A stretch of DNA of 64,000 nucleotides from Candidatus Hydrogenedentota bacterium (GCA_016182605.1 JACPGE010000046.1:7769-71768), one strand, 5' to 3'; positions 43,468 through 60,793 are shown, counted from the first letter of the stretch. The notes: generated from the letters alone by a model not told the origin. Made by a program: numbers and translations.

Positions 43468-43495
43468 CGCGCTTCTCCTGAAACGGTTCTTCCTG

Positions 43496-44701
43496 TCACT
43501 GCGTTTTCGATTCCGGGGCCGGAGCCTGGGACGCTGGAACTGCAAAGCGGCGCACACGGACCATGCCCCGCCATTCTTGCTCTTCCTGGATAAAAACGGA
43601 CGACGCAAGATAGACCTGGCTGGGATCCGGCATGGCCAATCCATACAAGGCGGACTTGGTCTCGCTCTGCCCCCAGTATTCCCAGTACTTCTTCCCCTCA
43701 TTGTCCAACAATGCGGCAAAAGGTTTTTCTTCAAGACTGCCGCCCACCGCGCAGCCCGTCATCGACGCCGCCACCTCAAAGGTATCCAGCGCGGACGCCG
43801 CAGGCAGCACGGTGCTATCCCATATGGTGTCGAACGCGACATCGAGCATGGCAACATGGACCGGCTTCTGCGCGCCCTGGGGCACCTCCCAAAGCAGGGC
43901 CACGCGGCCATCCGGCAGGGAGGAACACTTGGGCTGGCCCCCGTCGATAAAGCGTTCCGCGCCCTGGGCGCCTTCTCCATCGAAGCGCCCGATCCAGACA
44001 ATGCCCTGCAGTGGGCTCGTCTGTTCACCCAATCCGGAAGCGCCCACGGCAAGCACGAAGCCCCCGTCGGCGAGGGCGTCGCCGCTCACATAACAAAACT
44101 GGAGATCGTGAACGCAGGGCTTGCGCCAAACGGCGTTCGCGGTGGCGTCCAGCTTGATCAACACGCTCTCTTTTCCATCGACCGCGGCAAGCACATAGCC
44201 GCCGCCGGTCAAGGCGATGGCGCTGCGCACCTGGAGCCGCTTGGATGTCCGCGGAATCTCAAACCTGCCTGCGGGGCCGCCGTCTGGCGTCAGCGGCACG
44301 AGCCAGGGCTGACCATCCACGAAGTCCACAATCAAAGCCGTATGCGCGGGGTCGCCGGTAGTCGTCGTCATACGCCCCGTAACAGCGGAGTCGAGCGCAT
44401 TGCCCTGGCTGTCCTTCTGCGGCTTTTCCACCTGCGCCGCAAGTACCGGCTTGCCGGCAGCATCCAACTGCCAGACCCAGATCTCGTTGCGCGCAGGTTC
44501 GCTGACCGATTTCAGATCGCCGATAGCGCTCACCACCACCTGGCCATTGCCGGCCAGGGTCACGCCTTCGAGGCGGTACCACAGTGGCTTCGGCCCCAGA
44601 TCGACGCTCCAGGACAACGCCAGCCCGGGCGGCTGCGCATGGGCGCAAGTCCCCGCAAGCAGCAGGACAAGCAACGCCGGTAGCATTCTAAACGGACACA
44701 T
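43496..44701 (-). CDS. Secreted hypothetical protein (repeat/beta-propeller-like?)
   Basis: Signal peptide MLPALLVLLLAGTCAHA. The start overlaps the upstream gene's stop by 1 nt. No family recognised. Confidence 0.5.
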   Translation of the reverse strand: MCPFRMLPALLVLLLAGTCAHAQPPGLALSWSVDLGPKPLWYRLEGVTLAGNGQVVVSAIGDLKSVSEPARNEIWVWQLDAAGKPVLAAQVEKPQKDSQGNALDSAVTGRMTTTTGDPAHTALIVDFVDGQPWLVPLTPDGGPAGRFEIPRTSKRLQVRSAIALTGGGYVLAAVDGKESVLIKLDATANAVWRKPCVHDLQFCYVSGDALADGGFVLAVGASGLGEQTSPLQGIVWIGRFDGEGAQGAERFIDGGQPKCSSLPDGRVALLWEVPQGAQKPVHVAMLDVAFDTIWDSTVLPAASALDTFEVAASMTGCAVGGSLEEKPFAALLDNEGKKYWEYWGQSETKSALYGLAMPDPSQVYLASSVFIQEEQEWRGMVRVRRFAVPASQAPAPESKTQ

Positions 44702-47700
44702 CAGCAGCAATTGCACACCTCGCTTTGCCGTTCCTCGAAGGCGCCGCCACCAAAGTTCACGAGCACCCGGTAGTAGCGATCCGCCCATACGAAACAATCG
44801 GCCACCACCGCCGCCGGCGCGGTGGACGCGGTGCACACCGCGCGCATGGCGATGAGCATGGCCGTGTCGCAATTGGATCGGTTGCTGTTGCAGGTCTGGT
44901 AACACCGATCGTGATTGTCGCACGGACCCATCAATCCGTTGGGCCCGGGCACCACGCCGAATTGCGTGTCGTTGCCGCCGGCGGGGTTGTCCTTGTCCGC
45001 AACCACGGTACCCTGCGCCCACGAAGGCGCGCTGCACCCATCGAACTGGAAGGTCCACGCGGGATTCGGCACGCGATTGGGGCAATCCTCCAATTCCGCG
45101 ATGGGATTCTTCGCCTGCACTTCGTTGTTGTTGAAGGCGCCGGTGCCCTGGGTGCAGCACTGCGTGGCCAGCGAGAAGACCTCCGGCGTGGATCGAACGA
45201 TACCCGTGTCGCAGCAGCCTTGCGTCGCCAGGGTGTAAACGGCGCGGCCGCAACAGCCCTGGGTGCCCGTGTTGTACGGCACGCCGTTGCAACAGGCCTG
45301 ATTCTGCTTCAAGGTGCTGGTGCATTCTCCATCGGCCATCTCTTCGCAGGGGCCGCACTGCTCCACATCGCTGGTCACGGAATAGGGCGGACAATTGCTG
45401 CCCCAGCCCGCCACATCGATCCCGGCGCCCGGATCGCTCCGGATCGTGCCCCCATCCTCCGAAACCTGCCCACTCGCCACAATCTCGAAACTGCCCTTCT
45501 CATGATTGAAATTCAGGAAGAACGCCGCGGCGCCCGCGGGGAGCGCGCTCATGTTCGGGTATTCGATCCGGATGGGCGGATCGAAGCGCGCCCCCGTGGG
45601 TCTCAGGGTCCAGGCGAAGGGCGGATTCACGCCATCGGGCAGGGGCATAGGCACATCGTCGAAATGAACCTGGTTCAATGCGATCAAGGCGCCGTCCGTG
45701 GCCGGCGTGCCATCCGCAAGCGTCATCGAACCGGGCTCGACAAACATGCGCAACCCCTCGATCTCTTCCACCTCCAGCACGGTCACCTCGGTGGTGCTGT
45801 AGAACCGCACATTGTTCGGATTCAGCGGCGGCAACAGCACGGGCGTCGGCAAGCCATTCGCCGCGTTGGGCACCACAAGCACCTCATAACCCAGCTCCGG
45901 GAACATGCCCGGGGAAATGGGATTGCCCCCCAGGCTGGTCGCGGTAGCACCGTCGATGTGCAGATGGCCATGACCCGCGGGGAGATCGCTAAACTCAAAG
46001 GTGCCGTCCGCCGCCGTAAACGTTTGCTGTTCCGTGCCGGAGCCCACGAGCAGCACCACATGGGCATTTCCAATGGGCGCGTTCCCATTGTCGAGCACGA
46101 CACCGCTAAACGTGGTGGGCTGATTCCCCCGGCGCACCGATCCGAACACGGTAAACACGACGGGGGCCGTATCGTTCTGCGGGTAATCCACCTCGACCAC
46201 ATTGTTGCCTTCCTCCGGGCCCAGGATCAGATTCACCGCGGCGTGACCGGTCGCATCGCTGGGAATGCTCACTTCCTCTTCGCCGCCGATATTGCCGCCG
46301 CCCTCGATCACCCGGAACGTGACCTCCACCCCCGCCAGGCCGTTGCCCCCATCGCTTACCCAGGCCACCAGCGGCTCCGGCGCCGGGGCGCCCGCCTCTC
46401 CACGCTGCAGGTTGCCCCCGCCCAGATTCAGTTGTTTGGGCGCTGCCGGCGTGGACGTCGCACAGAACATCACCGTGCCCGCCACATCCCGGCTCGTCGC
46501 CTCCACCCGGTTGTTTCCGCAGCCGGCATCTGTGCCCAGCCGCCAGAACGCGCGTGCGCGGCCATTCAAGTCCGTGGCCGTCCGGATCGAGATGGCGCCT
46601 TCGCCGCCCTGCGCCACGCTGAGCCGCCCATCGCTCCGCACCACCGAGAAGGTCACCAGCTTGCCCGAGAGCGGCGTGCCATCCCCACGGGTGACCTCCA
46701 CCTCGATCGGCGTGGTCAGTTCCGAAAGGATCGTGCCCTGCTGCCCATCGCCCCCGGTTGCCGTCATGCGCACCGCATTCGCCGGAATCGCCGTCCGGCT
46801 AACCGTAACTTCGTGCGTGGCGCTGTTGCCGACGGCGTCCGTCACCGTCGCGCTGAGCACGTTCACCCCTTCATTCAGCGCGACCATCGTCCGCTCAAAC
46901 GTGCCATTGGTCCCCACGCCGCTGTTCACCGCGGCCGCGGCGCCGTTCACCGTGACCTCCAGCCCCATGAAGCCGCTGAGCGAGTCGGAAATCCGGCCCG
47001 CCACGGCAACCGTCGCGTTCGTGAGCTGCGCGCCATCCGCGGGAAAATCGATGAACACAAAGGGATCCTGGCCATCCTGAACGACCTGCACCGGCGACGG
47101 TGAACTCGATTCGCCGCGCGCCTGCGCCGTCACAAACAACTTGTTCAGCCGGTTCGGATTGAGCGTGACCTCCACCGAAAAAGCGCCCGTCTCGTCCGCC
47201 ACGGCCGTGACTTCGCTCGCGCCTCCGGAAATCACCAGGGTTGCGCCCCGTTCCGCGGTCCCGGAAAGGGTCACCGAATTCGACGAGGTGGACGTGACCG
47301 AACCCACCACGGTGGGCGCGGCGGGCGGCCCCGTCAGCATTTCCCCCTCGCCCTCCCCTTCGCCCTCGCCTTCGCCCTCCCCTTCGCCAGTGCTCGCCGT
47401 AACCGTTATGGTGCGCGTGGCCGTATTCGAGCTGCTCGCGGAACGCACCGTGAGGGAAGCCGTATACACGCCCGCTTCGGCATAGATATGCGAAACCGAC
47501 AGGCCACTTCCGGGGACACTGTCGCCAAAGACCCACTCACGACTGCTAATGGTCTGGCCCGCGGCTGCGGTGGAGGTGTCGGTGAAGAGCACAGTCAGCG
47601 GCGCCGGTCCCGTCATGGGCGTGGCCGTGAAACTCGCGGTGACACCCGAGGGCGCCGGCGGCATGCACCCCGGGTGCACGGCAACTACGATGAGCGTCAA

Positions 47701-47733
47701 CAGTAGACTGAATGCGTACTGTGCTCGAAGCAT
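44701..47733 (-). CDS. Giant secreted/surface protein: PKD domain, (GE)n linker, Ig-like repeats, Cys-rich module and C-terminal group-XII-PLA2-like domain
   Basis: PKD-like GPAPLTVLFTD...WVFGD...H.Y..AGVYT. GEGEGEGEGEGEGEGE linker. Multiple Ig-like repeats. C-terminal DGCSAP...PCDNHDRCYQTCNSNRSNCD resembles the PLA2G12 catalytic HD-CY block. Confidence 0.6.
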   Translation of the reverse strand: MLRAQYAFSLLLTLIVVAVHPGCMPPAPSGVTASFTATPMTGPAPLTVLFTDTSTAAAGQTISSREWVFGDSVPGSGLSVSHIYAEAGVYTASLTVRSASSSNTATRTITVTASTGEGEGEGEGEGEGEGEMLTGPPAAPTVVGSVTSTSSNSVTLSGTAERGATLVISGGASEVTAVADETGAFSVEVTLNPNRLNKLFVTAQARGESSSPSPVQVVQDGQDPFVFIDFPADGAQLTNATVAVAGRISDSLSGFMGLEVTVNGAAAAVNSGVGTNGTFERTMVALNEGVNVLSATVTDAVGNSATHEVTVSRTAIPANAVRMTATGGDGQQGTILSELTTPIEVEVTRGDGTPLSGKLVTFSVVRSDGRLSVAQGGEGAISIRTATDLNGRARAFWRLGTDAGCGNNRVEATSRDVAGTVMFCATSTPAAPKQLNLGGGNLQRGEAGAPAPEPLVAWVSDGGNGLAGVEVTFRVIEGGGNIGGEEEVSIPSDATGHAAVNLILGPEEGNNVVEVDYPQNDTAPVVFTVFGSVRRGNQPTTFSGVVLDNGNAPIGNAHVVLLVGSGTEQQTFTAADGTFEFSDLPAGHGHLHIDGATATSLGGNPISPGMFPELGYEVLVVPNAANGLPTPVLLPPLNPNNVRFYSTTEVTVLEVEEIEGLRMFVEPGSMTLADGTPATDGALIALNQVHFDDVPMPLPDGVNPPFAWTLRPTGARFDPPIRIEYPNMSALPAGAAAFFLNFNHEKGSFEIVASGQVSEDGGTIRSDPGAGIDVAGWGSNCPPYSVTSDVEQCGPCEEMADGECTSTLKQNQACCNGVPYNTGTQGCCGRAVYTLATQGCCDTGIVRSTPEVFSLATQCCTQGTGAFNNNEVQAKNPIAELEDCPNRVPNPAWTFQFDGCSAPSWAQGTVVADKDNPAGGNDTQFGVVPGPNGLMGPCDNHDRCYQTCNSNRSNCDTAMLIAMRAVCTASTAPAAVVADCFVWADRYYRVLVNFGGGAFEERQSEVCNCC

Positions 47734-48033
47734 GGGAATCCCCTCATACGGTATGGGCGGGGCATTGAGTTTCTGCCCGCTGCACATGATCAATCCAACC
47801 CAAGTTCGGATTCGACACAAGAACGCACCACTTCCAAGATCGTTCTTGCTTACTGCCAGTCTGTCGAGTCTAACAACGCGCGTCCGATCTGTCAACGAGT
47901 TTTATATACAATTCGCGGGAGTCAAGATCTTGCCGGAAACGACGCAGAACCGCCCTAAGCTGCTGGCGCATGGCAACTTCCAATACGGGCGTCACCAATG
48001 GCCCAGTGGCCACGCATGAAAATAATCCCGTTG

Positions 48034-48077
48034 GCTCAGCCCTGCCGCAGATCCACCATCGCCGTCGCCACGCCCGA
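48034..48077. repeat. Left copy of ~44-bp imperfect direct repeat (att-like), relic of the beta-helix gene 3' end
   Basis: gctcagccctgccgcagatccaccatcgccgtcgccacgcccga matches 55258-55301, with a 19-bp perfect core gcagatccaccatcgccgt at 48047-48065. Minus-strand translation ends GVATAMVDLRQG, versus GVATAMVDLRKG for the real gene. Confidence 0.65.
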
Positions 48078-48342: not shown

Positions 48343-51300
48343 TCAACATCCTCCTGCCATCATACTGCGCATCGCATCTACCGCGTCACGGCCATCAGGC
48401 ACAAAAAGTAGCAACTCCTCATCCTCGAATTTTCTCAAAAGTTCCTCTAACTTAAGAACCTCGGAGAGCTTCCGTACTTCTGCCGTTTGCCACATCGATA
48501 ACGCCATCGCATGACGAAGTGACATATATTGTCTGCTACTCGCCGAACCCACAGTAAACAAAGCCCCGTTCGCTCTATCAATCAACACTCTTCTTCCCGC
48601 CGAGGGCCGAAAGTCGATATCATCTTCGACTTCTGATCGGCAAAGATGCATGCAACCTTCCCCAGGATCCACCGAGAAAATCAAATCCTCCAGCAAAACA
48701 ATATAAAAAGCCCTTATAAGTACGACATTTGCCAACAATGATTCCAATCGGCTCTCCCGCAAACTGAGTCGCACCTTATCTCCTTGGGCCTCCGCACAGA
48801 ATACGAAATGCACCGGACGATAACACGGCTCTTCCCCTTTCAATCCACTTCTCATCAATTCCACAGCTTCTGCGCATCGCCCGTCGCCTTCCTCTCGCAG
48901 TGTCCGCCAAAACTCCCTCCGCAATTCCCGCGACCGCTCCAAGTCATCGTATTCCTCGCCTCCGACTCCAAAATAATTATCCGTAGCGAAGGCAACTGCT
49001 TTCAGACATTGAAGAATTGAAACTCCGGACTTTACCTCTGCGAAGTCCTTCAGGAGTCCTTTCATCTGCTCCAAGAAAACTTCCGTCCCATGGGCCTCCT
49101 TCACAAGCAGCAACGGCCAGTTCTCTCGCCACCAAACTTCAAGCTGTTCCGTCAAAATCGTAAGCGAAAACTTAGACAACTCACCGCACTCACTCGCGCT
49201 TAACGCCATCTCTACCAAGAAGCACTGCAATGCATTCTCCGCAAGAAACACCATATTTTGCACCACGTCGTTGTCGGTGCCCTTCTTGTCCACTGCCAGC
49301 AGCAAGAGAATGATCTTGGAATACAATCCACCAATAGAATTCCCCGCGTGCGCTCCGTTGAAACAAACGAGCCGAGCGAATAGGAAACCTACAACCAACT
49401 CATTCAACAGGCAGCGGTCGAAATATGGATCAACAGTATTTGAGCCCCTTCCAGAAAGAACGCTACTTACAATACCGCCGGCACTCCCGGTAGCCGCCAA
49501 TGCCCCCAGAAATGCGTTTGAAGTCGACACAGGATGCAAAAATTCATGTAATATTATCCCAATATGCATCGGATGAGATGCTTGATTAGGATTTACATTG
49601 AATACCGCATAAGTGCAATCAAAACCCAATTTTGCACGGCTCGGTACGGTGATCGTAAGTGTTTCGGCCGAAGGCCGTTGATCCACTCTAAGTATGCCCC
49701 CGGAAAAATATACGGGGCCAAGCAGTGCCATCACTCCTTCGGCAAGCCCACTCCAAGCGTTTACTGCCAATGTGGTTCGCCCCCAGCGCTCCCCAACCGA
49801 GTCTATGTGATTGCTCCTGCGGGCACCCGAAGAAGAATTCCTGTTAAGCGCCGCGCTGAATGGCTCGGTGAATGCGCGCAATACATCTTCTGCCTCTCGT
49901 GCAATTACATTACCACACAATGGGGCCATCTGCACGGCCATATGCCAAGCCAAATAAGCATCAACCAACTCCAAGGCGATTGTAGAATCGCATGGATCCA
50001 TCAACTGTTCTTGAAAATGATGCGCCACACTCAAGTATTTGTCACGTAGGTGTCGGCTCGTTCGAAGCTTCTTGACCGCCATCAACGCATCGTAACGCGC
50101 GTGCTGCTCCTTCTCGGAATCATTCTTGGATACGGCACCTCGACCAAATCCACGGCGAACCAGGCTCTCCAGATAGTCTCTCGTACTGAATGGATAAGGG
50201 ATTCGTTTGTCTCGCCGCAACGGCAGCACATTCCGCTCTTGCGCAGTCGTTCTCAACACAAGTGTTGCGGCGCGCAAGGGAGTTCCTCGTTGAGCCGAGG
50301 CCACTCCACCTTCAGGAACGTATGTTCCCCTGCTCATCGTATCCATAAGTCGGTAATACTTTAACAGCACCTCAAGCGTCTGGACACCGCCGCCAATATT
50401 GACCATGCCACCGCTGCCCGTCGGCTCCAGCGGTAAAAGTTCCGACAATGGTATTTGAAAGTCATAGTACCCAAATACCGTGCGTTCCATACGGAAGGCT
50501 ATCTGCTCGCAAGATAACTTCTCCTTTTCCGCAAAATCCAATACACAGCGGCTCAGATCCTTTTCATGCCCCAGTTTCGTCGAGACTATCAATTCACCAT
50601 CAATCTCACCGGAGATGCCCCACCCGACTCCTGTGAAGCTCGTGCTCTTTGCTGCTTCCGCGAATGGCCATATCACTCCCGGTATTGTATTCGCCTGCGT
50701 AAATATGTGGTTAGCAGCAAAATGCCTCGCCGGATCAAACTCGATCTCCCCCCCGATGTTGGCGCACTTCGCCAACTCCTTGTAGCGCGAAACCAAAGCC
50801 GATTGCTGAATTCGATACACTTCAATCATGTCACCATGAGCTTGTTCTATCAAATCCTCCCAGGCATCAAAAACGTCGGCAACCGTAATACCCGCTATAG
50901 CATCCACGCACAAACGAACTTCCCCAAAGGCATTACTGGATACCAGTAGTGTGAAATCACTCCAATCCGACGACGCAAGCAACAACGCTTTCGGATGCCG
51001 AATGGTCTCATCGCACACTCCCAGCGCTGATTGAAGCCGATGCTCTATCACATGTAGTAGCGGAAGGTACCCGGCAGCCGCGTTCAGTGTCCTTACAAGT
51101 CCGGAAATCTGAACCCGGCAAATTGAGAATAAAGGCATCGGAGGTGGTGTCGCTGCTTGGGGGCGCCCATTTTCAATCTCAACCTGATTAAGCGCGATAA
51201 ATTCACCGGAATTCCATTGCTGCAACACTCGAAATGTGCCCCTGAGCTCAATGGCGTCTGGTACTACAGCCGCTCCTTGAATGCAATGAACTGCCTTTAA

Positions 51301-51660
51301 TCCATTTACAGTACAAATATTTTCTCCTATACCATAGGAGTGTGTTCTAAATATAGCGGCTAGCTGCATCTCGCCAAGCAATGAAACAAACAGAGGCAGG
51401 GTTGGAACAATCTCAACGCACCCATCTCTTTCATATGCGTCAAGCCCGACGGCCTTTCGCTCTTGCCTAATCGACTCAAGATTCACTTGCATTGAGCAGG
51501 CGTCGTCCACCATCATCTGACGCTTCCGATGAATGAGTATGCGACGTTTTATTCGCGCCACAACCTCCGCCTCATCATCAGGCGAGACTGCAATCAGCAG
51601 AACATTGATCAACTCACCTTCCAAATAGACGCCCAATGGGTTGATTTTCAATTTGCGCAT
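48343..51660 (-). CDS. 1105-aa protein of unknown function with HEFLH (HExxH) motif; last gene of the KAP-NTPase operon
   Basis: Uninterrupted 3.3-kb ORF in ~50% GC DNA, where long shadow ORFs are unlikely. HEFLH is encoded at 49534-49548. No other recognisable motif. Confidence 0.75.
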   Translation of the reverse strand: MRKLKINPLGVYLEGELINVLLIAVSPDDEAEVVARIKRRILIHRKRQMMVDDACSMQVNLESIRQERKAVGLDAYERDGCVEIVPTLPLFVSLLGEMQLAAIFRTHSYGIGENICTVNGLKAVHCIQGAAVVPDAIELRGTFRVLQQWNSGEFIALNQVEIENGRPQAATPPPMPLFSICRVQISGLVRTLNAAAGYLPLLHVIEHRLQSALGVCDETIRHPKALLLASSDWSDFTLLVSSNAFGEVRLCVDAIAGITVADVFDAWEDLIEQAHGDMIEVYRIQQSALVSRYKELAKCANIGGEIEFDPARHFAANHIFTQANTIPGVIWPFAEAAKSTSFTGVGWGISGEIDGELIVSTKLGHEKDLSRCVLDFAEKEKLSCEQIAFRMERTVFGYYDFQIPLSELLPLEPTGSGGMVNIGGGVQTLEVLLKYYRLMDTMSRGTYVPEGGVASAQRGTPLRAATLVLRTTAQERNVLPLRRDKRIPYPFSTRDYLESLVRRGFGRGAVSKNDSEKEQHARYDALMAVKKLRTSRHLRDKYLSVAHHFQEQLMDPCDSTIALELVDAYLAWHMAVQMAPLCGNVIAREAEDVLRAFTEPFSAALNRNSSSGARRSNHIDSVGERWGRTTLAVNAWSGLAEGVMALLGPVYFSGGILRVDQRPSAETLTITVPSRAKLGFDCTYAVFNVNPNQASHPMHIGIILHEFLHPVSTSNAFLGALAATGSAGGIVSSVLSGRGSNTVDPYFDRCLLNELVVGFLFARLVCFNGAHAGNSIGGLYSKIILLLLAVDKKGTDNDVVQNMVFLAENALQCFLVEMALSASECGELSKFSLTILTEQLEVWWRENWPLLLVKEAHGTEVFLEQMKGLLKDFAEVKSGVSILQCLKAVAFATDNYFGVGGEEYDDLERSRELRREFWRTLREEGDGRCAEAVELMRSGLKGEEPCYRPVHFVFCAEAQGDKVRLSLRESRLESLLANVVLIRAFYIVLLEDLIFSVDPGEGCMHLCRSEVEDDIDFRPSAGRRVLIDRANGALFTVGSASSRQYMSLRHAMALSMWQTAEVRKLSEVLKLEELLRKFEDEELLLFVPDGRDAVDAMRSMMAGGC

Positions 51661-51710
51661 GTGTTCTCCTGGCAGGCTCTTGTTCGACTTTCATCGGGCA
51701 AGATGGGTGT

Positions 51711-52319
51711 TCAGCGCTTACGAACTTCTAATTGCTGTAATGCAATGGAAAAACCCTCCGTCAATCTTCTAATCACCCATCCAGTGCCCTCCTGGTTGAA
51801 TGCAGCAGCCTGGCGGAATTGCACTCCCCTGCAGTCGGTACCTTGAACTGATTCTTCTGATAGGATCTCGCCTCCAACTGCTACATGGACGGTTACTCCT
51901 TCTCGCTTGCTCACTTTGCGCTGCACGATCGGCTTGGATACTGCATTACGAGGCCCTGAGCTGGTGATCGAGCCTGTGCATTCCGCCGGACTCGGATACG
52001 CTTGGAGCGCCAACTTGCCCTCAGTAAAGGCAATTGCGCTGTCATCGCTCAGGTCCGGGAAATCCTGATGTAAATCGATCGACATCCAAGGCGAATTGGA
52101 TGCCAAATCATTGTGGTAGGCTCGCTTTCTCACATCCAGGAATAGTCGTCGAACCATGCCTCGATGCAAGCACATTCGAGAATCCACGTAAGCACCGCGA
52201 AAAAAAACGGCCAGATCCCTCATACCACTATCGAAATTTTCTTGATTCTGTGCACCATATGTAATTTCTAGAAGCTCTTCGATGACCTCCTGCAATCGCT
52301 CAAAGTTCATGCTGTCCAC
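51711..52319 (-). CDS. 202-aa hypothetical protein (operon gene 3)
   Basis: ORF in the low-GC island. The start overlaps the upstream gene by 13 nt. No recognisable motif. Confidence 0.6.
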   Translation of the reverse strand: MDSMNFERLQEVIEELLEITYGAQNQENFDSGMRDLAVFFRGAYVDSRMCLHRGMVRRLFLDVRKRAYHNDLASNSPWMSIDLHQDFPDLSDDSAIAFTEGKLALQAYPSPAECTGSITSSGPRNAVSKPIVQRKVSKREGVTVHVAVGGEILSEESVQGTDCRGVQFRQAAAFNQEGTGWVIRRLTEGFSIALQQLEVRKR

Positions 52320-53260
52320 GTTATTGGCCTTCTGGCAAGATGCTTTGCCAACTGCTCTGGATCAAGTCCTTCGAAATAGAGATTCGCGGTACCTTTGGAA
52401 GTTTCAATCCAACTTTGGTGCATACATACAATTGCTCTTATCCCAAATCTGCTGACGAATGACATGGCATCAGACACCAATCCTTCATAGCGGCGGGCAT
52501 CAATATCAAGTGAAGAATTCTCGCTCCGGTTATCAGTTTTTCCCGTGGACTGTATGTAATACTTTGTGATGCAATGCGTCTCCTTTAAGAATCTCTCGAA
52601 TCGACTCAACTCCAGGCGGGGAGTCGAGGAGTCCTTTGCCGTGCAATCATAGATATAGTGAAGTTGAGCGATTGGAGCTCGCCCCAATCTATCATAAGCA
52701 TTGCGATCCGGAGGAAGGATCCGGAACTCCGATTGACAGAAGTCTCCGACGGCCGCGGCCATAAAAGACCAATTCGTATCAGGTGGAACCCAAAGGTTAG
52801 CAATCGATGTCAACCAGCTCGATCTTAGAGCATCGGCTCGTTTCCCTTTCAGACTCACAATGTAACGACGCATTTCTTCACAAGAGGAGTTCAATTTCTC
52901 GCTTCTTACTGCGCTTCTTCCCGCAAATTGCTTGTAAATCTCGCCAACAATATAGTTTACGTCCACTTCTTCCTCATCAAGAGTTGTCGCGTAATGGCTC
53001 GTGTTGTTATGCGTGGTGGCGAGCGCTTTGATCGTCGGTGTAATTCGTTCCATCCGGTCGCTGCTGCGAGCAGAAAGAATTGAAGAACGCAAGAGTTTGT
53101 CAAAACCCTCCTTTAGGCTTCCCAGATCAAATTGCACGCCACCAGTTGAACCATTCGGTAACTTAAAAGTTTCAATATCCAAATGGCGCTCCTTGTAGAG
53201 TACCTTCTCGACAATCTCGTGATCCAACGAACTATGCTCATTCATTGCCAGCCACCTCAA
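52307..53260 (-). CDS. 317-aa hypothetical protein (operon gene 2)
   Basis: ORF overlaps the KAP gene stop (23 nt, or 8 nt if the ATG at 53245 is used). No recognisable motif. Confidence 0.6.
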   Translation of the reverse strand: MRWLAMNEHSSLDHEIVEKVLYKERHLDIETFKLPNGSTGGVQFDLGSLKEGFDKLLRSSILSARSSDRMERITPTIKALATTHNNTSHYATTLDEEEVDVNYIVGEIYKQFAGRSAVRSEKLNSSCEEMRRYIVSLKGKRADALRSSWLTSIANLWVPPDTNWSFMAAAVGDFCQSEFRILPPDRNAYDRLGRAPIAQLHYIYDCTAKDSSTPRLELSRFERFLKETHCITKYYIQSTGKTDNRSENSSLDIDARRYEGLVSDAMSFVSRFGIRAIVCMHQSWIETSKGTANLYFEGLDPEQLAKHLARRPITWTA

Positions 53261-54494
53261 AAGCGCAGGACGGACTCAACCTAATAAAGCAGAGAAGATG
53301 TGGATAATTTCGCAATAGTCTCTCAAAGAATTCCCGGGCGGTAGGAGACCATCCGGGATCCATCATTAACTCTTCAAACTCCTCTGGGGCGCTACGCCGC
53401 ATATTGGCACATTCCTCCACGGTGGCTGGTATTTTCATTGACTTTGAAAGTAACTTTCCATAGAGTCCGGGTTCCGTCATGACGGAGCGCCAAATCTCAC
53501 CGAAACAGTGCTTTAGTATGAAGTCTTTCAAGGCAGCCATGATTGGGCTCCGTGCGGTAATTCTCCTCTCGAATAGCCATGCCATAAGGAGCCGCTTGAG
53601 GGCTCGCGGATTTAGCGGCGCACCAATCAGAATCAAGCGCCGTTCGTCCCGTGAGACCTCGCTACCTTCAGGAAACCCCTCCAGTAGCCGGTCTATAAAC
53701 TCGGCAGCGACTCCAACGTCCAAGTCTGGCACAGAAAGAGAAACATCTATCAACTTGTCCAAGTAGCTCTTTGACAACTCATCCGCATTGCGAAACCCAT
53801 GGCCGTTGTATCTTGAATATACTGCTTCACGAATCGTTCGGGAGTCGAGAGCCAAGACAAATCGGCACTTGGTAGTTCCAAGCAGCAATTTGATCGTCTC
53901 AAGCATATTGAGTGCGACCTCGGGGGCCACCCTATCCAAATCGTCGAATAACAAGACCTTGGGTTTTCCAGTGGCCAAAGTGCGCTGCAACTTCTTAAGT
54001 CCTTGCTCCGCTTCAGAAAAATGCGCGCTCGCCAACTGCTCATTGCTCGATTGAATGCGATCAAAATCCTCGACTTTTTCATCTAATTTAATTGATACGG
54101 GTGCTCCGGGAACTTTAATTTCAATCGCACGCAACAAAATAGACACCGCCGAAAGTGCATTCAACGAGGCAAGAGTAAATTCTCGGCGAATCGCCGCCGA
54201 TGGCGAATCACAAGACCTAACAATATCACGCCGAATGGCGAAGTCCATATTCTCATGCTTTTCATATCGCCACAAATCCAACCAGCGAACGTCATGATCG
54301 CGCGGCAACGCGTTCTGGAGCAGCCTTAAATAAGATGTCTTTCCGCTTCCCCAGTCACCAAAAATTGCAACTACTGTTCCGTCTGCCATGTGAGGCAACA
54401 GCTTGGCAAGTTCACTGGCATGGTTCGAAAAACCGAGGAAATCCTCGGACTCACTGCAAATAGGTGCCTGTGATATTTCCCCTGATTCATTCAC
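53238..54494 (-). CDS. KAP-family P-loop NTPase (operon gene 1)
   Basis: EDFLGFSNHASELAKLL N-terminus, Walker A GDWGSGKTS (54333-54359), Walker B LLFDDLDR (DDLDR at 53931-53945), and SYLDKLIDVSLSVP. GTG start. Confidence 0.8.
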   Translation of the reverse strand: MNESGEISQAPICSESEDFLGFSNHASELAKLLPHMADGTVVAIFGDWGSGKTSYLRLLQNALPRDHDVRWLDLWRYEKHENMDFAIRRDIVRSCDSPSAAIRREFTLASLNALSAVSILLRAIEIKVPGAPVSIKLDEKVEDFDRIQSSNEQLASAHFSEAEQGLKKLQRTLATGKPKVLLFDDLDRVAPEVALNMLETIKLLLGTTKCRFVLALDSRTIREAVYSRYNGHGFRNADELSKSYLDKLIDVSLSVPDLDVGVAAEFIDRLLEGFPEGSEVSRDERRLILIGAPLNPRALKRLLMAWLFERRITARSPIMAALKDFILKHCFGEIWRSVMTEPGLYGKLLSKSMKIPATVEECANMRRSAPEEFEELMMDPGWSPTAREFFERLLRNYPHLLCFIRLSPSCAFEVAGNE

Positions 54495-54562
54495 TCTTAA
54501 TTGGCTTTCCAGTTACCTTAGTTATATGGTTCGCTTATTTTTTTTAATGCTTGCGGCTTTTG

Positions 54563-54591
54563 AGTATACGAATATTGACTCCGTTGTTCAA
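54563..54591 (-). promoter_or_regulatory. Sigma70-like promoter candidate for the KAP operon
   Basis: The minus strand reads TTGAAC-17 nt-TATACT (-35 at 54586-54591, -10 at 54563-54568), about 70 nt upstream of the GTG start, in an AT-rich stretch. Applicability of the E. coli consensus to this organism is unknown. Confidence 0.3.
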
Positions 54592-54735
54592 TAGGCATCA
54601 TAGAGGGGTCGCGGAATCCTTGATTCCTGACTCGATTAGACTCGACCCCCACGTAATATACAGGCCCAACGAACCAAGCAAACACTACATATAGTTGCAG
54701 GGCGGCTACTTTACACAACCAATACTATCTTTAAG

Positions 54736-55249
54736 TTGTGCTTCGGATTAGGCTACGGAGCTCGTACCACTCTCGCCGCCACGAGTCCTCGCCCCGCAAC
54801 TTGTTGTGTATTGCCTACGGCGGCACAACACCCAGTTGTTCTCGCTCTTCCTTACCTCCCAGACTGGCCGCCGTGGTGGCTTGGAAAGGCGGCGCAGGCT
54901 ACTTTTGAGATGGTGCGGCTCCGGGGGCAGCAGGCAATGATGGACGCCATGCTCCAGGAGTATCCAGAGTTCCGCGCCGTACTCGATCAGGCCGATCCCA
55001 TCCATGCCTTCGAAAAAATTCCCCCCCAAGGCTCTCGCCCTCATCAACAACCAGGACGACCCGCTCATCCCCCGTGCATGCGCTGAATCCCTCTACCAGA
55101 AACTCCTCCCCCTCTACGAAAAACACCCCGCCAACCTCCTCCTCAAGCTGTGCCCAACCAACAAGCCCACGCACGACGACCAGACCGAAGCCTTCGACGC
55201 CGGATGCCAATGGCTCGAAGACCACCTCCTGAACAGGCAGCCCGGCTAA
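54736..55249 (+). pseudogene. 5'-truncated and frameshifted remnant of an alpha/beta hydrolase (dienelactone-hydrolase/peptidase S9-like C-terminus)
   Basis: Two overlapping frames (54736-55086 and 55004-55249) join sensibly across an A6/C7 homopolymer run (55013-55027). The result reads ...DPIHAFEK / PPKALALINNQDDPLIP...THDD..., which looks like the C-terminal Asp/His part of a hydrolase with no N-terminal nucleophile region. Confidence 0.4.
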
Positions 55250-55257
55250 GCCCCCCG

Positions 55258-55301
55258 CTCACCCCTTGCGCAGATCCACCATCGCCGTGGCGACGCCCGC
55301 G
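55258..55301. repeat. Right copy of ~44-bp imperfect direct repeat (att-like), inside the 3' end of the beta-helix gene
   Basis: gctcaccccttgcgcagatccaccatcgccgtggcgacgcccgc. The 19-bp perfect core at 55271-55289 is identical to 48047-48065. Confidence 0.65.
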
Positions 55302-56626
55302 ATCATGTTCGCCTCAAGCACATTTTCACCGGCCTCTGCGCCGATGCGGATGCCGATGCGCTGCGCCGGGCCGCGGCGTTCTTCTATCGTGTTCTGCCGG
55401 ATCGTGTTGCCCTCCGTCACCCCCTGAAGATCGATCGCGATGCCGTCGTCACCGCCGGAATCGAGGATGCGATTGCCTTCGATCACGTTGCCCGTGGCAG
55501 TGAAGCCCTCGCCGCGTTCGGGCCGGAAGAGCACACCAACCTTGCCGCTGCCCTCGATGGTGTTGTTGCGCACGATGTTATAGTGGTCGCGGTGGCCGAT
55601 GCTGACACCCTCGCCGCTGTTGCCCACGATCATGTTGTCTTCCGCCATGCCTTCGCGCACGCCCCAGCAGAAGAAGATGCCGATGGTGTTGTTCTCGATG
55701 CGGTTGTTCCGCATGACGGGCCGCTGCGATCCGGAGCCGGGGTGCAGGCCGAGATCGGCGTTGCCGTGGCTGTGGCAGTGCTCGACCAGAACATCGTGGC
55801 AAATCTGCCAACTGATGCCATCGCCGTTGTAATTGCGCGCCTCCACCCGCCGGAAACTCAGATCGGAGCAGTCCTGAAACCACATGCCGCCGCCATAGTT
55901 TCCGTTCAGGTTTGCATTGTTTTCGCGGTTGCCGTCGATCGCCAGATTCTCAATGGCAATGTCCGACTGAAACTCCGCTGTGATCACGGGGAAAAGCGCC
56001 GCCACTTCCGGGGTCTGATCCATCCAGAAGTTCACGCGCGGCGCCTGGTCAAGCTTGAAGCGGTTGCCGCTGCGCGCGATCAGGGTGCGACGCAACACGT
56101 CCATGCCGCCCGTGTGCGGGTTCTTCGTGCGCAGGCACACCCCGTCGCCCACATTGAAGCCCCGCGCATCCGCCAGCGTGATCTCCTGGTCGAACCAGTC
56201 CGTGTCCGCCGCGAGGGTCGTCGAAAATGACGGCGCCTTGAAGAGCACCGTCTCCGCGCCACTGCCCACGATGCGCAGCCCCGACTTTACAAAGATGCTG
56301 TTGCGGCAGGTGTACGTGCCCGGCAAAATCTTCACCGTGCCCCCGCCCAGACGCGTGCAATAGTCCGCGGCAGCCTGAATGGCCCGCTCCGTCGTGCCTT
56401 CGAAATCGCCGCCTTTGCCCACGGTCACGGTGACGCGCTCCTCCCACTGCGGCTCGCGCCGTCCATCGCCCGAGGTGCTCTTCACCGGCGCGCCGAGTTG
56501 GGGCTCTTCCGCCCGGGCGCAAGGCAACGTCAAAGCGGAAGCCATGGCGGCGAGCTGCAGAAAGCCGCGCCGGTTCAGTGTGTTGGGTGCGCTCATGCTT
56601 TTCATCCTCGGGTTGGGCCGCGTCAC
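55259..56626 (-). CDS. Tat-exported right-handed parallel beta-helix repeat protein (pectate-lyase/NosD-like fold)
   Basis: NRRGFLQLAAMASALTL twin-arginine signal. Repeated N.I..N...GI and G...N.I.GN beta-helix repeat pattern. Confidence 0.7.
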   Translation of the reverse strand: MTRPNPRMKSMSAPNTLNRRGFLQLAAMASALTLPCARAEEPQLGAPVKSTSGDGRREPQWEERVTVTVGKGGDFEGTTERAIQAAADYCTRLGGGTVKILPGTYTCRNSIFVKSGLRIVGSGAETVLFKAPSFSTTLAADTDWFDQEITLADARGFNVGDGVCLRTKNPHTGGMDVLRRTLIARSGNRFKLDQAPRVNFWMDQTPEVAALFPVITAEFQSDIAIENLAIDGNRENNANLNGNYGGGMWFQDCSDLSFRRVEARNYNGDGISWQICHDVLVEHCHSHGNADLGLHPGSGSQRPVMRNNRIENNTIGIFFCWGVREGMAEDNMIVGNSGEGVSIGHRDHYNIVRNNTIEGSGKVGVLFRPERGEGFTATGNVIEGNRILDSGGDDGIAIDLQGVTEGNTIRQNTIEERRGPAQRIGIRIGAEAGENVLEANMIAGVATAMVDLRKG

Positions 56627-56747: not shown

Positions 56748-58643
56748 ATGGCGGAAATGGTACCCGCGAAACTCCCGGCGCGGGCGAGCCGGGGGGAAGA
56801 ACGCCTCTTTTCCATTCTTCAGCGCCTGCCCGCCGGGTACATCGTTTACTACGAGCCCTACGTGAAATCCAAGTACCCCGACTTCATCGTCATCGCGCCG
56901 GATTTGGGCGTGATGGTCATCGAAGTGAAGGGCTGGTACGCGGGCAATCTGTGTGGGGCCACGCCGGAATCGATCACGGTGAAATACATGGGGCGCACCC
57001 GCGCCTATCCGCATCCCCTGCGCCAGGTGCGGAACTACATGTGGAACTTGTCGGCGGAGTGCGAGCGGGTGCCCGCCTTCACGGAACTCCTGCGCAAGGA
57101 GGGACAACACCTCGGGCGCCCGATCTTTCCCTTCGGTCATTTCGTCGTCCTCGCAAACATGACCGGAAAGCAGCTTGCAGAGCACCCTTTGGGCGATTTC
57201 CGGCCGCTCTTCGACCGCGCCTCCACCATGCTGCGCGAGGATCTGGAGGCCTGGGAGAAGGCCCCGCCAAATGCGCTGCCTGCCATGCTGGCGCAGTTCT
57301 TCCAGGTGCAGTGGCCCATGCCCCCCCTCACGCCGCGCCAGGTGGACATCCTTCGCGCGATCATCCACCCCGAGATCCGGCTGGGCGGCCTGCCGCGCCG
57401 GCTTCCAATCGAAAACGATACGGACGCCTGGATCCCCTACAAGAGCCTGGTCAACGTGCTCGATCTGCGGCAGGAACGCACCGCGCTCTCGATCGGCGAA
57501 GGACACCGCGTGCTCTTCGGGGTCGCGGGCTCGGGTAAGACCGTGGTGCTCATTGCGCGGGCGCGCTACCTCCACGATCGCGATCCCCAGGCGCGCGTGC
57601 TGCTCCTCTGCTTCAACGTGGCGCTCGGAGCCTACCTGCGCCAAGCCTTGCGCGAATGCGCCCGGGTGAAGGTGCACCACTTCGACGGCTGGGCCAAGGC
57701 AAACGGCGTCACGCGCCAGTTCACCCCCGAGGGCACGGAGTCCGACGACCGCATGGGAGCGCGCCTGCTCGACGTGCTGGCCGCAGGCAGGGGCGAAGCG
57801 GGCGCCTATGATGCCGTGCTGATCGACGAGGCGCAGGACTTTCCCCCCGAGTGGTTTTCCTGTGTGCGCGCGGCATTGAAGGATCCCGAACAGGGCGACC
57901 TGATCATCGTGGGCGATGGACAGCAGGGCATCCGCCGCAACAAGGCGGTGACGTGGTCGGAACTCGGCATTCAGGCGCGGGGCCGCACGGTGAACCAGCG
58001 CTTCGATCTGGACAAGAACTACCGCAACAGCCGCGAGATCGTGGCGCTGGCCGCGGCCTTTGCGGCAGGCTCGCGCGATGGCGTGACGGGGGACATTCTG
58101 CGCGTGCCGCTGGACGCCTCGAAAACCGTGCGCGCCACGGGGTTCATGCCGGTGGCCGCCTCATTCCGCGATCGCGATGCGGAACGCCAAGCCATTGTGC
58201 ATACGGTGGCTTGGCTGCTGGGACAGCCTGCGCCCATCAACGCGCTCCTGCCCAATGACCTCGCCCCGGAAGAGATTGGCCTCCTGTACCCCATGCTGCC
58301 GAAACAACTCCGGCCCGGTTTTGACGCGCTCCGAGAATCGCTCCGTGCATTTGCGCCCGTGCTTTGGCTCAATGAGACGCGCGCGAACCGCGAAAAATGG
58401 GGCGTGGAAGGCATCAAGATTCAGACCATCGACTCCTCGAAGGGCCTCCAATACCGCGCCGTGATTCTGATGTGGGCCGATCTGCTGCCGCGCAATTTCC
58501 AGGACTCGGACGAAGCAAGCGATCGCGCCCTGCTCTACGTCGGCCTGACACGCCCCGAAGACTGCCTCGTGGTCACCGGCCTGACCAAGAGCCGTTACCT
58601 GGAAGAATTGCAGGCGACCTGCCTGGCCGAAACGCACTTGTAA
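56748..58643 (+). CDS. NERD nuclease domain fused to UvrD/Rep-like SF1 helicase
   Basis: N-terminal GEERLFSILQRLP...YPDFIVIAPDLGVMVIEVKG (NERD, PD-ExK). Walker A GVAGSGKT (57519-57542), LIDEAQDF, and C-terminal TIDSSKGLQYRAVIL (UvrD_C-like). Confidence 0.8.
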   Translation: MAEMVPAKLPARASRGEERLFSILQRLPAGYIVYYEPYVKSKYPDFIVIAPDLGVMVIEVKGWYAGNLCGATPESITVKYMGRTRAYPHPLRQVRNYMWNLSAECERVPAFTELLRKEGQHLGRPIFPFGHFVVLANMTGKQLAEHPLGDFRPLFDRASTMLREDLEAWEKAPPNALPAMLAQFFQVQWPMPPLTPRQVDILRAIIHPEIRLGGLPRRLPIENDTDAWIPYKSLVNVLDLRQERTALSIGEGHRVLFGVAGSGKTVVLIARARYLHDRDPQARVLLLCFNVALGAYLRQALRECARVKVHHFDGWAKANGVTRQFTPEGTESDDRMGARLLDVLAAGRGEAGAYDAVLIDEAQDFPPEWFSCVRAALKDPEQGDLIIVGDGQQGIRRNKAVTWSELGIQARGRTVNQRFDLDKNYRNSREIVALAAAFAAGSRDGVTGDILRVPLDASKTVRATGFMPVAASFRDRDAERQAIVHTVAWLLGQPAPINALLPNDLAPEEIGLLYPMLPKQLRPGFDALRESLRAFAPVLWLNETRANREKWGVEGIKIQTIDSSKGLQYRAVILMWADLLPRNFQDSDEASDRALLYVGLTRPEDCLVVTGLTKSRYLEELQATCLAETHL

Positions 58644-59471: not shown

Positions 59472-59630
59472 GAACAGCCCACCCCGGTGCATAAGCCAAC
59501 GACACGAACGAAAACCCAACACGCACAGTATACGCCAGCGAACGCCAATCTGCTCCTTTCTGAAGTCTCGTTTTCTGAAGTCCAGTTGATCTCCCACAGC
59601 GCGCACAGGTATATTTGCCGCCTCACCCGT

Positions 59631-59717
59631 GGGCGAGTGGTGGAATTGGCATACACGACGGACTTAAAATCCGTTGGGAGTGATCCCTTGCGGGTTCGAG
59701 TCCCGCCTCGCCTACCA
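59631..59717 (+). tRNA. tRNA-Leu (anticodon UAA), CCA encoded
   Basis: Hand-folded cloverleaf. Acceptor GGGCGAG/CUCGCCU (G1:U72), D arm GUG-GAAUUGGCAUA-CAC, anticodon stem ACGGA/UCCGU with loop CUUAAAA, long variable arm (GGGA..UCCC), T arm GCGGG-UUCGAGU-CCCGC, then discriminator A plus CCA. Confidence 0.88.
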
Positions 59718-59940
59718 TATTAAACACTGACGATTCGCGAAAAATGGCGGTTTGCTCCTTCCCTTGTCAAGGAGCCGCAAGCACACAATAAAGCACGGCG
59801 GAAAATGAACACAGGCCCCCCCCGCGGGGTAATCTTTGCCCAGTTTGCGCTAAACGGGTACGGCATGTCCCGTAGTCTTCCCAAAGATGGACGGGACATG
59901 ATAATATTGGTGTGCGACCTATTGAAACTCGGAGAAAAAA

Positions 59941-60291
59941 ATGAGCGATCCCGTAAATCCTGAGATCGTCTTTGATCTCATAAAAAGTCCCGCGTATAGG
60001 ACCGCCCATATAGATGGAGCCTTTGGGGGAATCACCACTAAAGGCAAAATCTCTATCGCATTGTTCTCCGAGCGGCAACCAATACCCACCTCCATTACGC
60101 ACGCGCTAGATGGAAACAAAATCGGGAAGGAATTGGGACGCGAGACTCGGCAAGCCATAATCCGCGAATTGGAAGTAAACTGCATCATGGACCCAGATAC
60201 GGCGCGAGCAATCGCTGAGTGGCTCAATGCAAAAGCTGAAGAATCCGAAAAAGCTAAGGAATCGATCGGGAATGACGTGGACAATGAGTGA
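59941..60291 (+). CDS. 116-aa hypothetical protein (cassette gene 1)
   Basis: ORF in ~50% GC DNA downstream of the tRNA. Preceded by a 10-bp perfect inverted repeat and ggagaaaaaaATG. No motif recognised. Confidence 0.45.
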   Translation: MSDPVNPEIVFDLIKSPAYRTAHIDGAFGGITTKGKISIALFSERQPIPTSITHALDGNKIGKELGRETRQAIIRELEVNCIMDPDTARAIAEWLNAKAEESEKAKESIGNDVDNE

Positions 60292-60793
60292 GTGTACGGT
60301 TGGTCAAGCTACTGGCAATATTTTCCCGCACATCTTGACGGTGTCGACAGAGATCCCTCAAACATTTGCATATCCCGAAGGCAGCTTCGCCTACAACAGA
60401 ACCAATCACTTGCCAGACGCGATTATGGGAAAACTCAAACGTCTCCCAAACATTGCGAGTGAATTGATTGATCGGTGGATAGAAGATACGGCCTTTCACT
60501 CTTCCCCAACCATCATTTTGCAGTCGCGGCATTTCTTGCAAGCCAAGGAAATGTATGCGCCCGGCTTAATTGAAAGACTCTTCCAAATATTGGATGTCCA
60601 CCCCTATCATGCAATCTTGGGGTTGGGTGAATTAGTCAGCCCGTTACCGTTTGGCAAAGAGTTGGCGGGCGATTTGGCTGGAATTGTAAGCGCGTGGAAG
60701 GAATGGGGACGTGACGGGCAACTCAGGCTTGGATCTTCCGGAATGGTTTCCAAATTTGCAGTCGATGCCGTGGAAAGAGACGAGCCCTATTGA
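60284..60793 (+). CDS. 169-aa hypothetical protein (cassette gene 2)
   Basis: The ATG overlaps the stop of gene 1 (ATGAGTGA). No motif recognised. Confidence 0.45.
   Translation: MSECTVGQATGNIFPHILTVSTEIPQTFAYPEGSFAYNRTNHLPDAIMGKLKRLPNIASELIDRWIEDTAFHSSPTIILQSRHFLQAKEMYAPGLIERLFQILDVHPYHAILGLGELVSPLPFGKELAGDLAGIVSAWKEWGRDGQLRLGSSGMVSKFAVDAVERDEPY

Follow-up and report, generated by a model that had tools for sequence, protein, structure and literature searches.

A compact operon of four genes, here called G1 to G4, occupies positions 48,343 to 54,494 of a 64,000-nucleotide (nt) stretch of DNA from a Candidatus Hydrogenedentota bacterium (GCA_016182605.1, JACPGE010000046.1:7769-71768; this whole stretch is referred to below as the window), and we regard it as almost certain that the four genes form a real, mobile and co-inherited cassette. 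G4, a large candidate zinc metallopeptidase, and the small gene directly before it were kept in all eight of the loci that we compared, and the enzyme encoded upstream of them, which in the window is the KAP-family P-loop NTPase G1, varied among loci. Because the pair is kept and the upstream enzyme is not, we describe the cassette as a constant core joined to an exchangeable upstream module. Our favored interpretation, which we hold to be evenly poised between right and wrong, is that of a mobile conflict cassette in which the metallopeptidase core stays constant and the partner can be swapped.

G4, its relatives and its partner genes

The G4 family is invisible to word-indexed homology searches, since in such a search, across 5.8 billion clusters, nothing but the G4 query itself came back and relatives were obtained only through an exhaustive HMMER scan of 1.84 billion representatives. 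The scan yielded 28 other relatives, all unnamed and mostly 950–1150 amino acids (aa) in length, with best matches of 2e-149 and 6e-114 at 34% identity. All ten clusters checked were metagenome singletons, and only one of them carries a public name (BDD45874.1, a "hypothetical protein" of a Candidatus Hydrogenedentota bacterium). The family is therefore sporadic and rare, and was found only in uncultured environmental bacteria. Besides the window, seven other G4 loci were retrieved (Table 1); a search for related loci with a three-sequence G4 alignment gave one locus in JGI metagenomes.

Table 1. Order of genes, from first to last, in the eight loci encoding a G4 protein.
Locus	Upstream gene or genes	Gene before G4	G4
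Window	KAP 418 aa; 312-317 aa	199-202 aa	1105 aa
L008	KAP 421 aa; 304 aa	197 aa	1081 aa
L009	KAP 482 aa; 296 aa	206 aa	1130 aa
L011	KAP 410 aa; 255 aa	144 aa	1095 aa
L014	unknown 801 aa (without Walker A)	186 aa	1149 aa
L015	186 aa; HD-CE 631 aa (PF24391, 1.6e-16)	187 aa	1028 aa
L016	TCAD9 728 aa (PF19974, 6.5e-23; weak APH-like match)	164 aa	1090 aa
L017	metallophosphoesterase 446 aa; 391-aa paralogue	153 aa	1048 aa

A KAP gene is present in four of the eight loci, the window included, and the other four keep G4 without one. The four-gene synteny that a first-pass annotation of the sequence would have looked for in other genomes was borne out in the remaining three KAP loci (L008, L009 and L011), where the genes lie on one strand with mostly 4-nt overlaps and the flanks are unrelated to each other. 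Across the KAP loci, the identities of G1 and G4 co-vary. The G4 proteins of L009, L011 and L014 are mutual best matches, yet the partner is a KAP of the window type in L009, a divergent KAP in L011 and a protein other than KAP in L014, so swapping must have happened within G4 subclades.

Two of the replacement enzymes have counterparts in defense libraries. The HD-CE protein of L015 matches the C-terminal region of the defense-associated reverse transcriptase RT_UG24 (2e-8); in the literature searched, the term HD-CE was met only in unrelated medical uses. The metallophosphoesterase of L017 matches PADLOC PDC-S60 (1e-16) and an "Effector endonuclease" model (7e-9). TCAD9, the domain found in L016, was defined from NTP-dependent conflict systems (PMC10910872) and has been classed as protein-kinase-like (bioRxiv 10.64898/2026.09.18.752743). 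The two upstream genes of L017 (585–1925 and 1941–3116) are paralogues (E 1e-15) of which only the first still matches Metallophos, and a tandem duplication of the partner is likely. Scanning the related loci for Rfam families and tRNAs returned nothing.

In the window, all four genes lie on the minus strand (Table 2), and their packing as an operon, proposed in the first-pass annotation, was confirmed. G1 and G2 overlap by 23 nt if G2 begins at its TTG, or by 8 nt (ATGAATGA) if it begins at its ATG; the G2/G3 overlap is 13 nt long, or 4 nt (ATGA, with the G3 start on the G2 stop); and G3 is followed, after a 50-nt gap that holds an AGGAG 6 nt ahead of the ATG, by G4. The open reading frames (ORFs) extend far beyond chance, since each of the five other frames contains 26 to 57 stops across the G4 span and the G4 frame contains only its own terminator. 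Nor is the arrangement a one-off assembly artefact, as the Logan assembly contig L001 (SRR12113422) is 100% identical to the window across 12,345 nt. A candidate sigma-70-like site (TTGAAC-17-TATACT, 54591–54563) lies upstream of the operon, in a region where the number of such sites is not above chance.

G4 itself is probably an active zinc metallopeptidase without a detectable relative among known peptidases, an assignment to which the invariance of its motif and its predicted topology both point. In an alignment of 21 family members (mean column identity, 29%), five columns are invariant (H705, E706, H709, E754 and L764), and H696, P697 and a second acidic residue four positions past E754 are near-invariant. 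The first-pass annotation had considered HEFLH the only recognizable feature of G4; the motif is indeed present, but it is not incidental, being invariant (as HExxH) across the family. With the family alignment as input, AlphaFold2 gave a model with a predicted local distance difference test score (pLDDT) of 79.6 and a predicted template-modeling score (pTM) of 0.87, as compared with a pLDDT of 33 from the single sequence. The model places three β-strands (653–689) before the HExxH helix (697–712), which is followed by E754 on helix 749–765. Such an order of β-strands, HExxH helix and downstream Glu helix is the zincin/gluzincin arrangement (clan MA). The gluzincins, clan MA(E), include thermolysin, neprilysin and anthrax lethal factor, and in thermolysin and neprilysin the downstream motif is ExxxD. 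As in these enzymes, the HExxH of the G4 model sits on a helix after a small β-sheet; its distance of 45 residues to the Glu is similar to that in lethal factor, and the ExxxE of most G4 members resembles the ExxxD of thermolysin and neprilysin. Unlike the gluzincins, however, the G4 family has an extra conserved HP dipeptide before HExxH, and there is no significant profile or fold match between the two.

Outside this putative catalytic center, the N-terminal ∼260 residues of G4 are predicted to form tandem ferredoxin-like domains and the remainder is mostly helical. The single weak fold match was of a chlorite-dismutase/HemQ-like type and covered the same N-terminal ∼260 residues (E 3e-3, target template-modeling score ∼0.5). 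No PDB chain was matched by sequence, and a Pfam scan of the 21 members found no family. When the HExxH region was excised, PF18894 (putative phage metallopeptidase) was matched in 3 of 19 members, with a best E of 0.025, and no other Pfam family was matched in more than one member. The most variable regions of G4 are 261–490 (18% mean pairwise identity) and 801–960 (20%), as compared to 27–31% for the others.

The KAP features of G1 and the absence of a transmembrane insertion, both noted in the first-pass annotation, held up well. G1 matches PF07693 (KAP_NTPase) at 97.4 bits (cut-off, 20; E 1.2e-27; model positions 2–284 of 293), and both Walker motifs are conserved in all four cassette KAPs. 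Transmembrane helices are typical of the KAP family; the highest 19-residue Kyte-Doolittle value in G1 is 1.64, and those of the orthologues are 1.27–1.36 at different positions. There is no conserved transmembrane insertion, and because the borderline hydrophobic stretch of G1 is absent from all three orthologues, we take G1 to be a soluble KAP, like PifA. The ATG start chosen by the gene caller (383 aa) would remove a conserved N-terminus, and the alignment of the L008 KAP, which starts at G1 residue 6, supports the longer GTG form. G1 shares 37% identity with both the L008 KAP and the L009 KAP, and other KAPs in the 5.8 billion clusters reach at most 27%. The nearest non-cassette KAP loci (L002–L006) have no neighbors resembling G2 to G4. 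In L002 and L003, the closest non-cassette KAP (P0003, 442 aa) follows a large gene on the same strand (>906 aa, cut by the contig end) that has no G4 similarity by tblastn and may represent a different pairing of a large protein with a KAP.

The first-pass annotation had recognized no motif in G2 or G3; along with G4, they matched nothing in Pfam, NCBIfam, PADLOC or PHROGs. The word-indexed search with G2 also returned the query only. G2 is weakly homologous to its positional equivalent in L008 (E 1e-5, 25% over 157 aa), with which it has in common the blocks CPNxSE..F and W/ALxxxAIxxLWxPxxxN, also seen in L009, and hhalign gave no link of the L011 protein in the G2 position, or of the 801-aa L014 protein, to G2 or KAP. 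Judged by its sequence, G2 is a fast-evolving protein that belongs to no known family. G3 is small and acidic (pI 5.85), and a gene of 144–206 aa takes its place directly before G4 in every locus. The proteins in this position are barely alignable, with marginal matches only (E 0.04–0.08); they have a common acidic motif, (F/I)P(D/E)LSDD(S/E), and no common conserved terminal peptide. Signal peptides and transmembrane segments were found in none of the cassette products.

Acquisition and genomic setting

The low-GC block described in the first-pass annotation was confirmed by both overall and codon-position composition: the GC fraction is 0.47–0.53 at about 48.2–54.75 kb and 0.60–0.68 in the flanks, and GC at third codon positions (GC3) is 0.48–0.52 in G1 to G4 versus 0.75–0.83 in neighboring genes. 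What that annotation overlooked is a 43-nt direct repeat that brackets the block. The repeat occurs in exactly two copies in the window, where none are expected by chance; the copies are 7223 nt apart, and 29 of the 31 nt in their core are identical (E 2e-8). Its left copy re-encodes the last 12 codons and the stop of a β-helix protein gene whose true end is the right copy (Table 2). A chance match or a dispersed repeat was rejected as an explanation, given the copy number and the reproduction of stop-proximal codons. A duplicated gene end around a compositionally foreign block points to an element that integrated site-specifically at a gene's 3' end, and the best reading is that the cassette entered the genome by integration at the 3' end of the β-helix protein gene. 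The earlier proposal that the block was horizontally acquired is thus supported by the shift in GC and GC3 and by the repeat. The 185,579 GTDB representative genomes, screened with the β-helix protein for an unoccupied copy of the insertion site, yielded no close relative of that gene. Between the AT-rich region upstream of the cassette and the right repeat lies a remnant of an α/β-hydrolase-like C-terminus (54750–55256, plus strand; ORF 55004–55249), apparently frameshifted at an A6/C7 homopolymer run.

Cassette GC was also lower than flank GC in six of the seven other loci. In L015, the cassette lies between direct repeats of ∼160 nt (6592–6758 and 13715–13880; 77–83% identical, spacing 7122 nt). 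These hold a TTGACA-type promoter-like stretch and a shared leader, with a third partial copy at 6419–6448, and could reflect either a promoter/leader that was duplicated or a hotspot for insertion in a defense island.

Recognizable defense genes adjoin the cassette in three of the eight loci. In the window, a fusion of a NERD nuclease and a UvrD-type helicase (56748–58643, plus strand, 631 aa), which matches PADLOC candidate C3a187 over its full length (7.5e-71), is one gene away from the cassette, beyond the β-helix gene, so the region behaves like a small defense island. The cassette of L015 is flanked by PDC-S01 (5e-94) on one side and by a type IIG restriction-modification gene (2e-87) and GmrSD/type IV (2e-43) on the other, and that of L009 adjoins a ZorD/DpdE-like SNF2 helicase.

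Function and competing explanations

We lean slightly towards a conflict or defense role, anti-phage or anti-mobile-element, for the cassette. This reading draws on the constant core with its repeatedly displaced enzymatic partner, on the extreme divergence of the two small components and the sporadic singleton distribution, and on the foreign composition, the flanking repeats and the occasional residence in defense islands. A hallmark of conflict systems is that effectors are displaced again and again while the operonic frame is preserved, with the effector usually being the swapped component (PMC7159879), and KAP NTPase fusion proteins have been experimentally validated as anti-phage (PMC13552941). 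The same grammar of a preserved core with repeatedly displaced enzymes is seen in the vWA-MoxR-VMAP ternary systems (Kaur, Burroughs, Iyer, Aravind 2020), which also use NTPases and peptidases as regulators and are likewise sporadically distributed (PMC7159879); KAP is not mentioned in the text of that paper. Membership in these systems was rejected, as no vWA, MoxR, VMAP, iSTAND, FtsH, GAP1 or EAD domain was found in the eight cassettes. None of the Pfam models that came out of the same paper is matched by G4, and the TCAD9 partner of L016 is the only link between the two groups.

We argue that G3 and G4 would make up a conserved sensing and regulating core, with KAP/G2 as one of several alternative output modules. 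G4 would then be the conserved sensing and regulating component, and G3 would either restrain it or serve as its substrate. A cue derived from the invader might unleash the G4 peptidase, which would cleave G3, the partner, or both, and this cleavage would release the activity of the partner enzyme. In the window, the released activity would be NTP-driven through KAP/G2, comparable to that of the PifA protein, which also lacks transmembrane helices, and would bring the infected cell, or the invader, to a halt. This specific order of events is speculative, and we would be mildly surprised to see it hold in full. With similarly limited confidence, we raise the possibility that the G4 family is an unrecognized modular immune class in which a giant metallopeptidase without a solved structural relative and its hypervariable small partner would act as constant sensor and regulator and switch on, by proteolysis, interchangeable effectors (KAP NTPase/G2, kinase-like, HD, metallophosphoesterase). 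Such protease-gated logic might, tentatively, be likened to caspase- or CHAT-type activation, built from unrelated parts.

Several observations weigh against this picture. No integrase or recombinase gene was found between the repeats, where the only ORFs are G1 to G4 and the hydrolase remnant; the segment holding that remnant (54750–55256) is high in GC despite lying inside the repeats, which suggests a history more complicated than a single clean insertion. At the sensitivity used, the G4 family was absent from PLSDB plasmids and INPHARED phages (tblastn) and from IMG/VR and GTDB representatives (three-sequence alignment). The first-pass expectation that such loci sit beside known defense genes was met in three of the eight loci as described above, but the other five, on short contigs, have no recognizable defense neighbors, and the other flanks hold ordinary genes such as FtsZ/FtsQ/Mur ligase genes, glycosidases, oxidoreductases and response regulators. 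The homology of G3 across loci is positional only. As to G4, its peptidase assignment is built on a short motif and a predicted topology: Foldseek found no significant match in PDB or BFVD, and profiles of the full-length protein and of residues 645–800 found nothing significant among PDB sequences. In addition, the window's G4 has a glycine, Gly758 (49387–49389), in place of the second acidic residue; at least 90% of the family have Glu there (ExxxE), and thermolysin and neprilysin have ExxxD. This glycine could mean altered or weakened catalysis in the window's copy.

The polarity of the system may also be the reverse of the one we propose. In the first-pass annotation, the cassette was divided into an NTPase sensor and a large effector, such that KAP, perhaps with G2, would sense infection and G4 would be a killing protease acting on essential host or phage proteins, in the manner of STAND/Avs proteins or of the Lit protease. 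Lit, from the e14 prophage, is reportedly a cytoplasmic HExxH zinc protease in phage defense. G4, whose activity is predicted, would resemble it in being a cytoplasmic HExxH zinc protease and a possible executor or regulator of abortive infection; the two have no sequence relationship, no PADLOC model matches G4, and G4 is ∼4 times larger, with extra domains, and is encoded inside a multigene cassette. The invariant HExxH is the only obvious destructive chemistry in the cassette, G1 leads the operon with its Walker motifs intact, and in three loci the divergence of the G1 subfamily parallels that of G4; moreover, KAP NTPases have been described as regulators of linked anti-phage modules (PMC13552941). 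However, half of the loci lack KAP and still keep G4, and the replacements (HD-CE, a metallophosphoesterase matching a PADLOC effector model, and TCAD9) resemble effectors rather than sensors. Because G3 and G4 are constant and KAP and G2 are replaceable, and because a sensor that is swapped around a single retained effector is the less usual grammar (PMC7159879), the earlier division is not supported as drawn, and we consider a G4 effector unlikely.

Two non-immune or partly immune roles appear less probable still. The cassette could be a module in which G4 matures G3 into a peptide (a signal, or a bacteriocin-like or modified product) that the upstream enzyme modifies or energizes. The pairing of a zincin-like metallopeptidase with a small protein that diverges rapidly has been described (PMC7159879), the small genes here diverge at an extreme rate and always directly precede G4, the kinase-like and phosphoesterase partners might serve as modifying enzymes, and most of the loci are without recognizable defense neighbors. 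We nevertheless find this role improbable, since the cassettes include no transporter, radical S-adenosylmethionine or cyclase gene and no leader-peptide-like conserved C-terminus, the products lack signal peptides and transmembrane segments, the G3 proteins lack a common terminal peptide, and the peptide-processing systems described in PMC7159879 are in turn accessory to conflict systems. An addiction module of the toxin-antitoxin (TA) type, stabilizing its mobile element with G4 or KAP/G2 as toxin and G3 as labile antitoxin and sensing no invader, would account for a compact, translationally coupled and mobile cassette with a small acidic protein directly before a large enzyme, for the direct repeats that flank it and for its sporadic singleton distribution. 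However, with four genes and 6 kb in total the cassette would be large as TA modules go, no component has a helix-turn-helix or other antitoxin-type domain, and no copy was found in the plasmids of PLSDB or the phages of INPHARED. This explanation, which is only partly distinct since TA and abortive-infection functions overlap, is to our minds rather improbable, and marginally more so than peptide processing.

That the cassette is a divergent member of a named KAP system is essentially refuted, consistent with the first-pass statement that its four-gene composition could be matched to no named system; PADLOC, NCBIfam, Pfam and PHROGs supplied no name. G1 does match the PADLOC models PDC-S20 (8e-22), PifA (9e-21) and QatA (5e-20), but weakly and over the generic KAP domain only, and its best NCBIfam match, QatA (NF041923, 2e-24), scored 86.2 bits where the cut-off is 600. 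QatABCD (Gao et al. 2020) is, like the cassette, a four-gene operon led by a KAP-type ATPase; membership was ruled out by the score of QatA below its cut-off and by the lack of QatB, QatC (QueC-like) and QatD (TatD DNase), whereas a genuine Qat locus among our nearest KAP loci (L005) has QatB and TatD. PifA of the F plasmid, which like G1 is a KAP without transmembrane helices, causes abortive infection (PMC13001434). It consists of one 720-aa protein, of which only model positions 7–257 were matched, and G1 belongs to a conserved four-gene operon. PDC-S20, a single-gene candidate, was matched at positions 18–274 of 464 with only 76 bits. G2 to G4 are unmatched in PADLOC, and the neighbors of the nearest non-cassette KAPs have nothing in common with them. 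In EF_KAP-type fusion proteins, the NTPase works together with an uncharacterized, variable module (PMC13552941). In these proteins and in PifA, the region of unknown nature is fused to KAP in one polypeptide, whereas G1 stands alone in a four-gene operon and the wider G4 family can do without a KAP gene. Tmn, of the YobI family, has two transmembrane helices inserted within its P-loop domain. G1 lacks such an insertion and no Tmn model was among its PADLOC matches, so membership in Tmn was ruled out as well; the first-pass mention of Tmn as a KAP-type NTPase was mistaken, as Tmn belongs to the YobI family (PMC13001434).

The cassette is thus of an already known kind in being an NTPase-containing, multigene, defense-like cassette with a (predicted) protease. 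New are the G2, G3 and G4 families, the lack of a significant solved-structure match for G4, and the architecture of a constant protease core with a swappable enzyme, and the gene set is not described in Pfam, NCBIfam, PADLOC, PHROGs or the literature searched. If the cassette is a defense system, three protein families without annotation anywhere would be gained for immunity, among them a 1,100-residue metallopeptidase candidate without a structural relative in PDB. The KAP NTPase would then be one among several partners that a constant protease core can exchange, which would offer a handle on how stand-alone, soluble members of a family defined two decades ago work, and a proteolytic activation route would be added to the bacterial immune mechanisms. 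The G4 family, unseen by word-indexed searches and annotation libraries, would in that case illustrate the rare immune diversity that standard pipelines miss.

Features of the cassette and its surroundings

Table 2. Positions in the window of the cassette genes, their motifs and the flanking repeat.
Feature	Position	Strand	Remarks
Left repeat copy	48034-48076		encodes GVATAMVDLRQG* on minus strand; duplicates β-helix gene C-terminus
G4	48343-51660	minus	1105 aa
E754 of G4	49399-49401		invariant; 45 residues downstream of HExxH
HEFLH (HExxH) of G4	49534-49548		residues 705-709
H696-P697 of G4	49570-49575		HP dipeptide 8-9 residues before HExxH
G3	51711-52319	minus	202 aa, or 199 aa from ATG at 52310
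G2	52307-53260	minus	317 aa from TTG at 53260, or 312 aa from ATG at 53245
G1	53238-54494	minus	418 aa from GTG start; predicted soluble KAP-family P-loop NTPase
Walker B of G1, LLFDDLDR	53931-53954		residues 181-188
Walker A of G1, GDWGSGKTS	54333-54359		residues 46-54
Upstream region of operon	54495-54740	minus	AT-rich, 36-48% GC in 100-nt steps
Right repeat copy	55257-55299		true 3' end of β-helix gene, encoding GVATAMVDLRKG*
β-helix (NosD/pectate-lyase-like) gene	55259-56626	minus	

Elsewhere in the window, a second low-GC patch (0.49–0.52; 59500–61000) begins at the only tRNA gene of the window, tRNA-Leu(TAA) (59631–59717, plus strand), and contains a DUF7689 protein (60711–61151, 4.3e-34) along with unannotatable ORFs such as 60227–60793; it is probably a separate, tRNA-targeted island. 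A calcineurin-like metallophosphoesterase (61849–62640, minus strand; Pfam ∼1e-11) with a weak match to PADLOC PDC-S10 (1e-10) belongs to the enzyme class that replaces KAP in L017 and is, in the window, unlinked to the cassette. Upstream of the island, the minus strand of 40819–47895 encodes two very large secreted-type proteins, one of 971 aa with IgGFc_binding, Big_2 and TSP3 domains and one of 1064 aa with PKD, Big_6 and CarboxypepD_reg domains and a PLA2G12-like C-terminus; a 12-nt tandem repeat lies within this region at 47342–47388.

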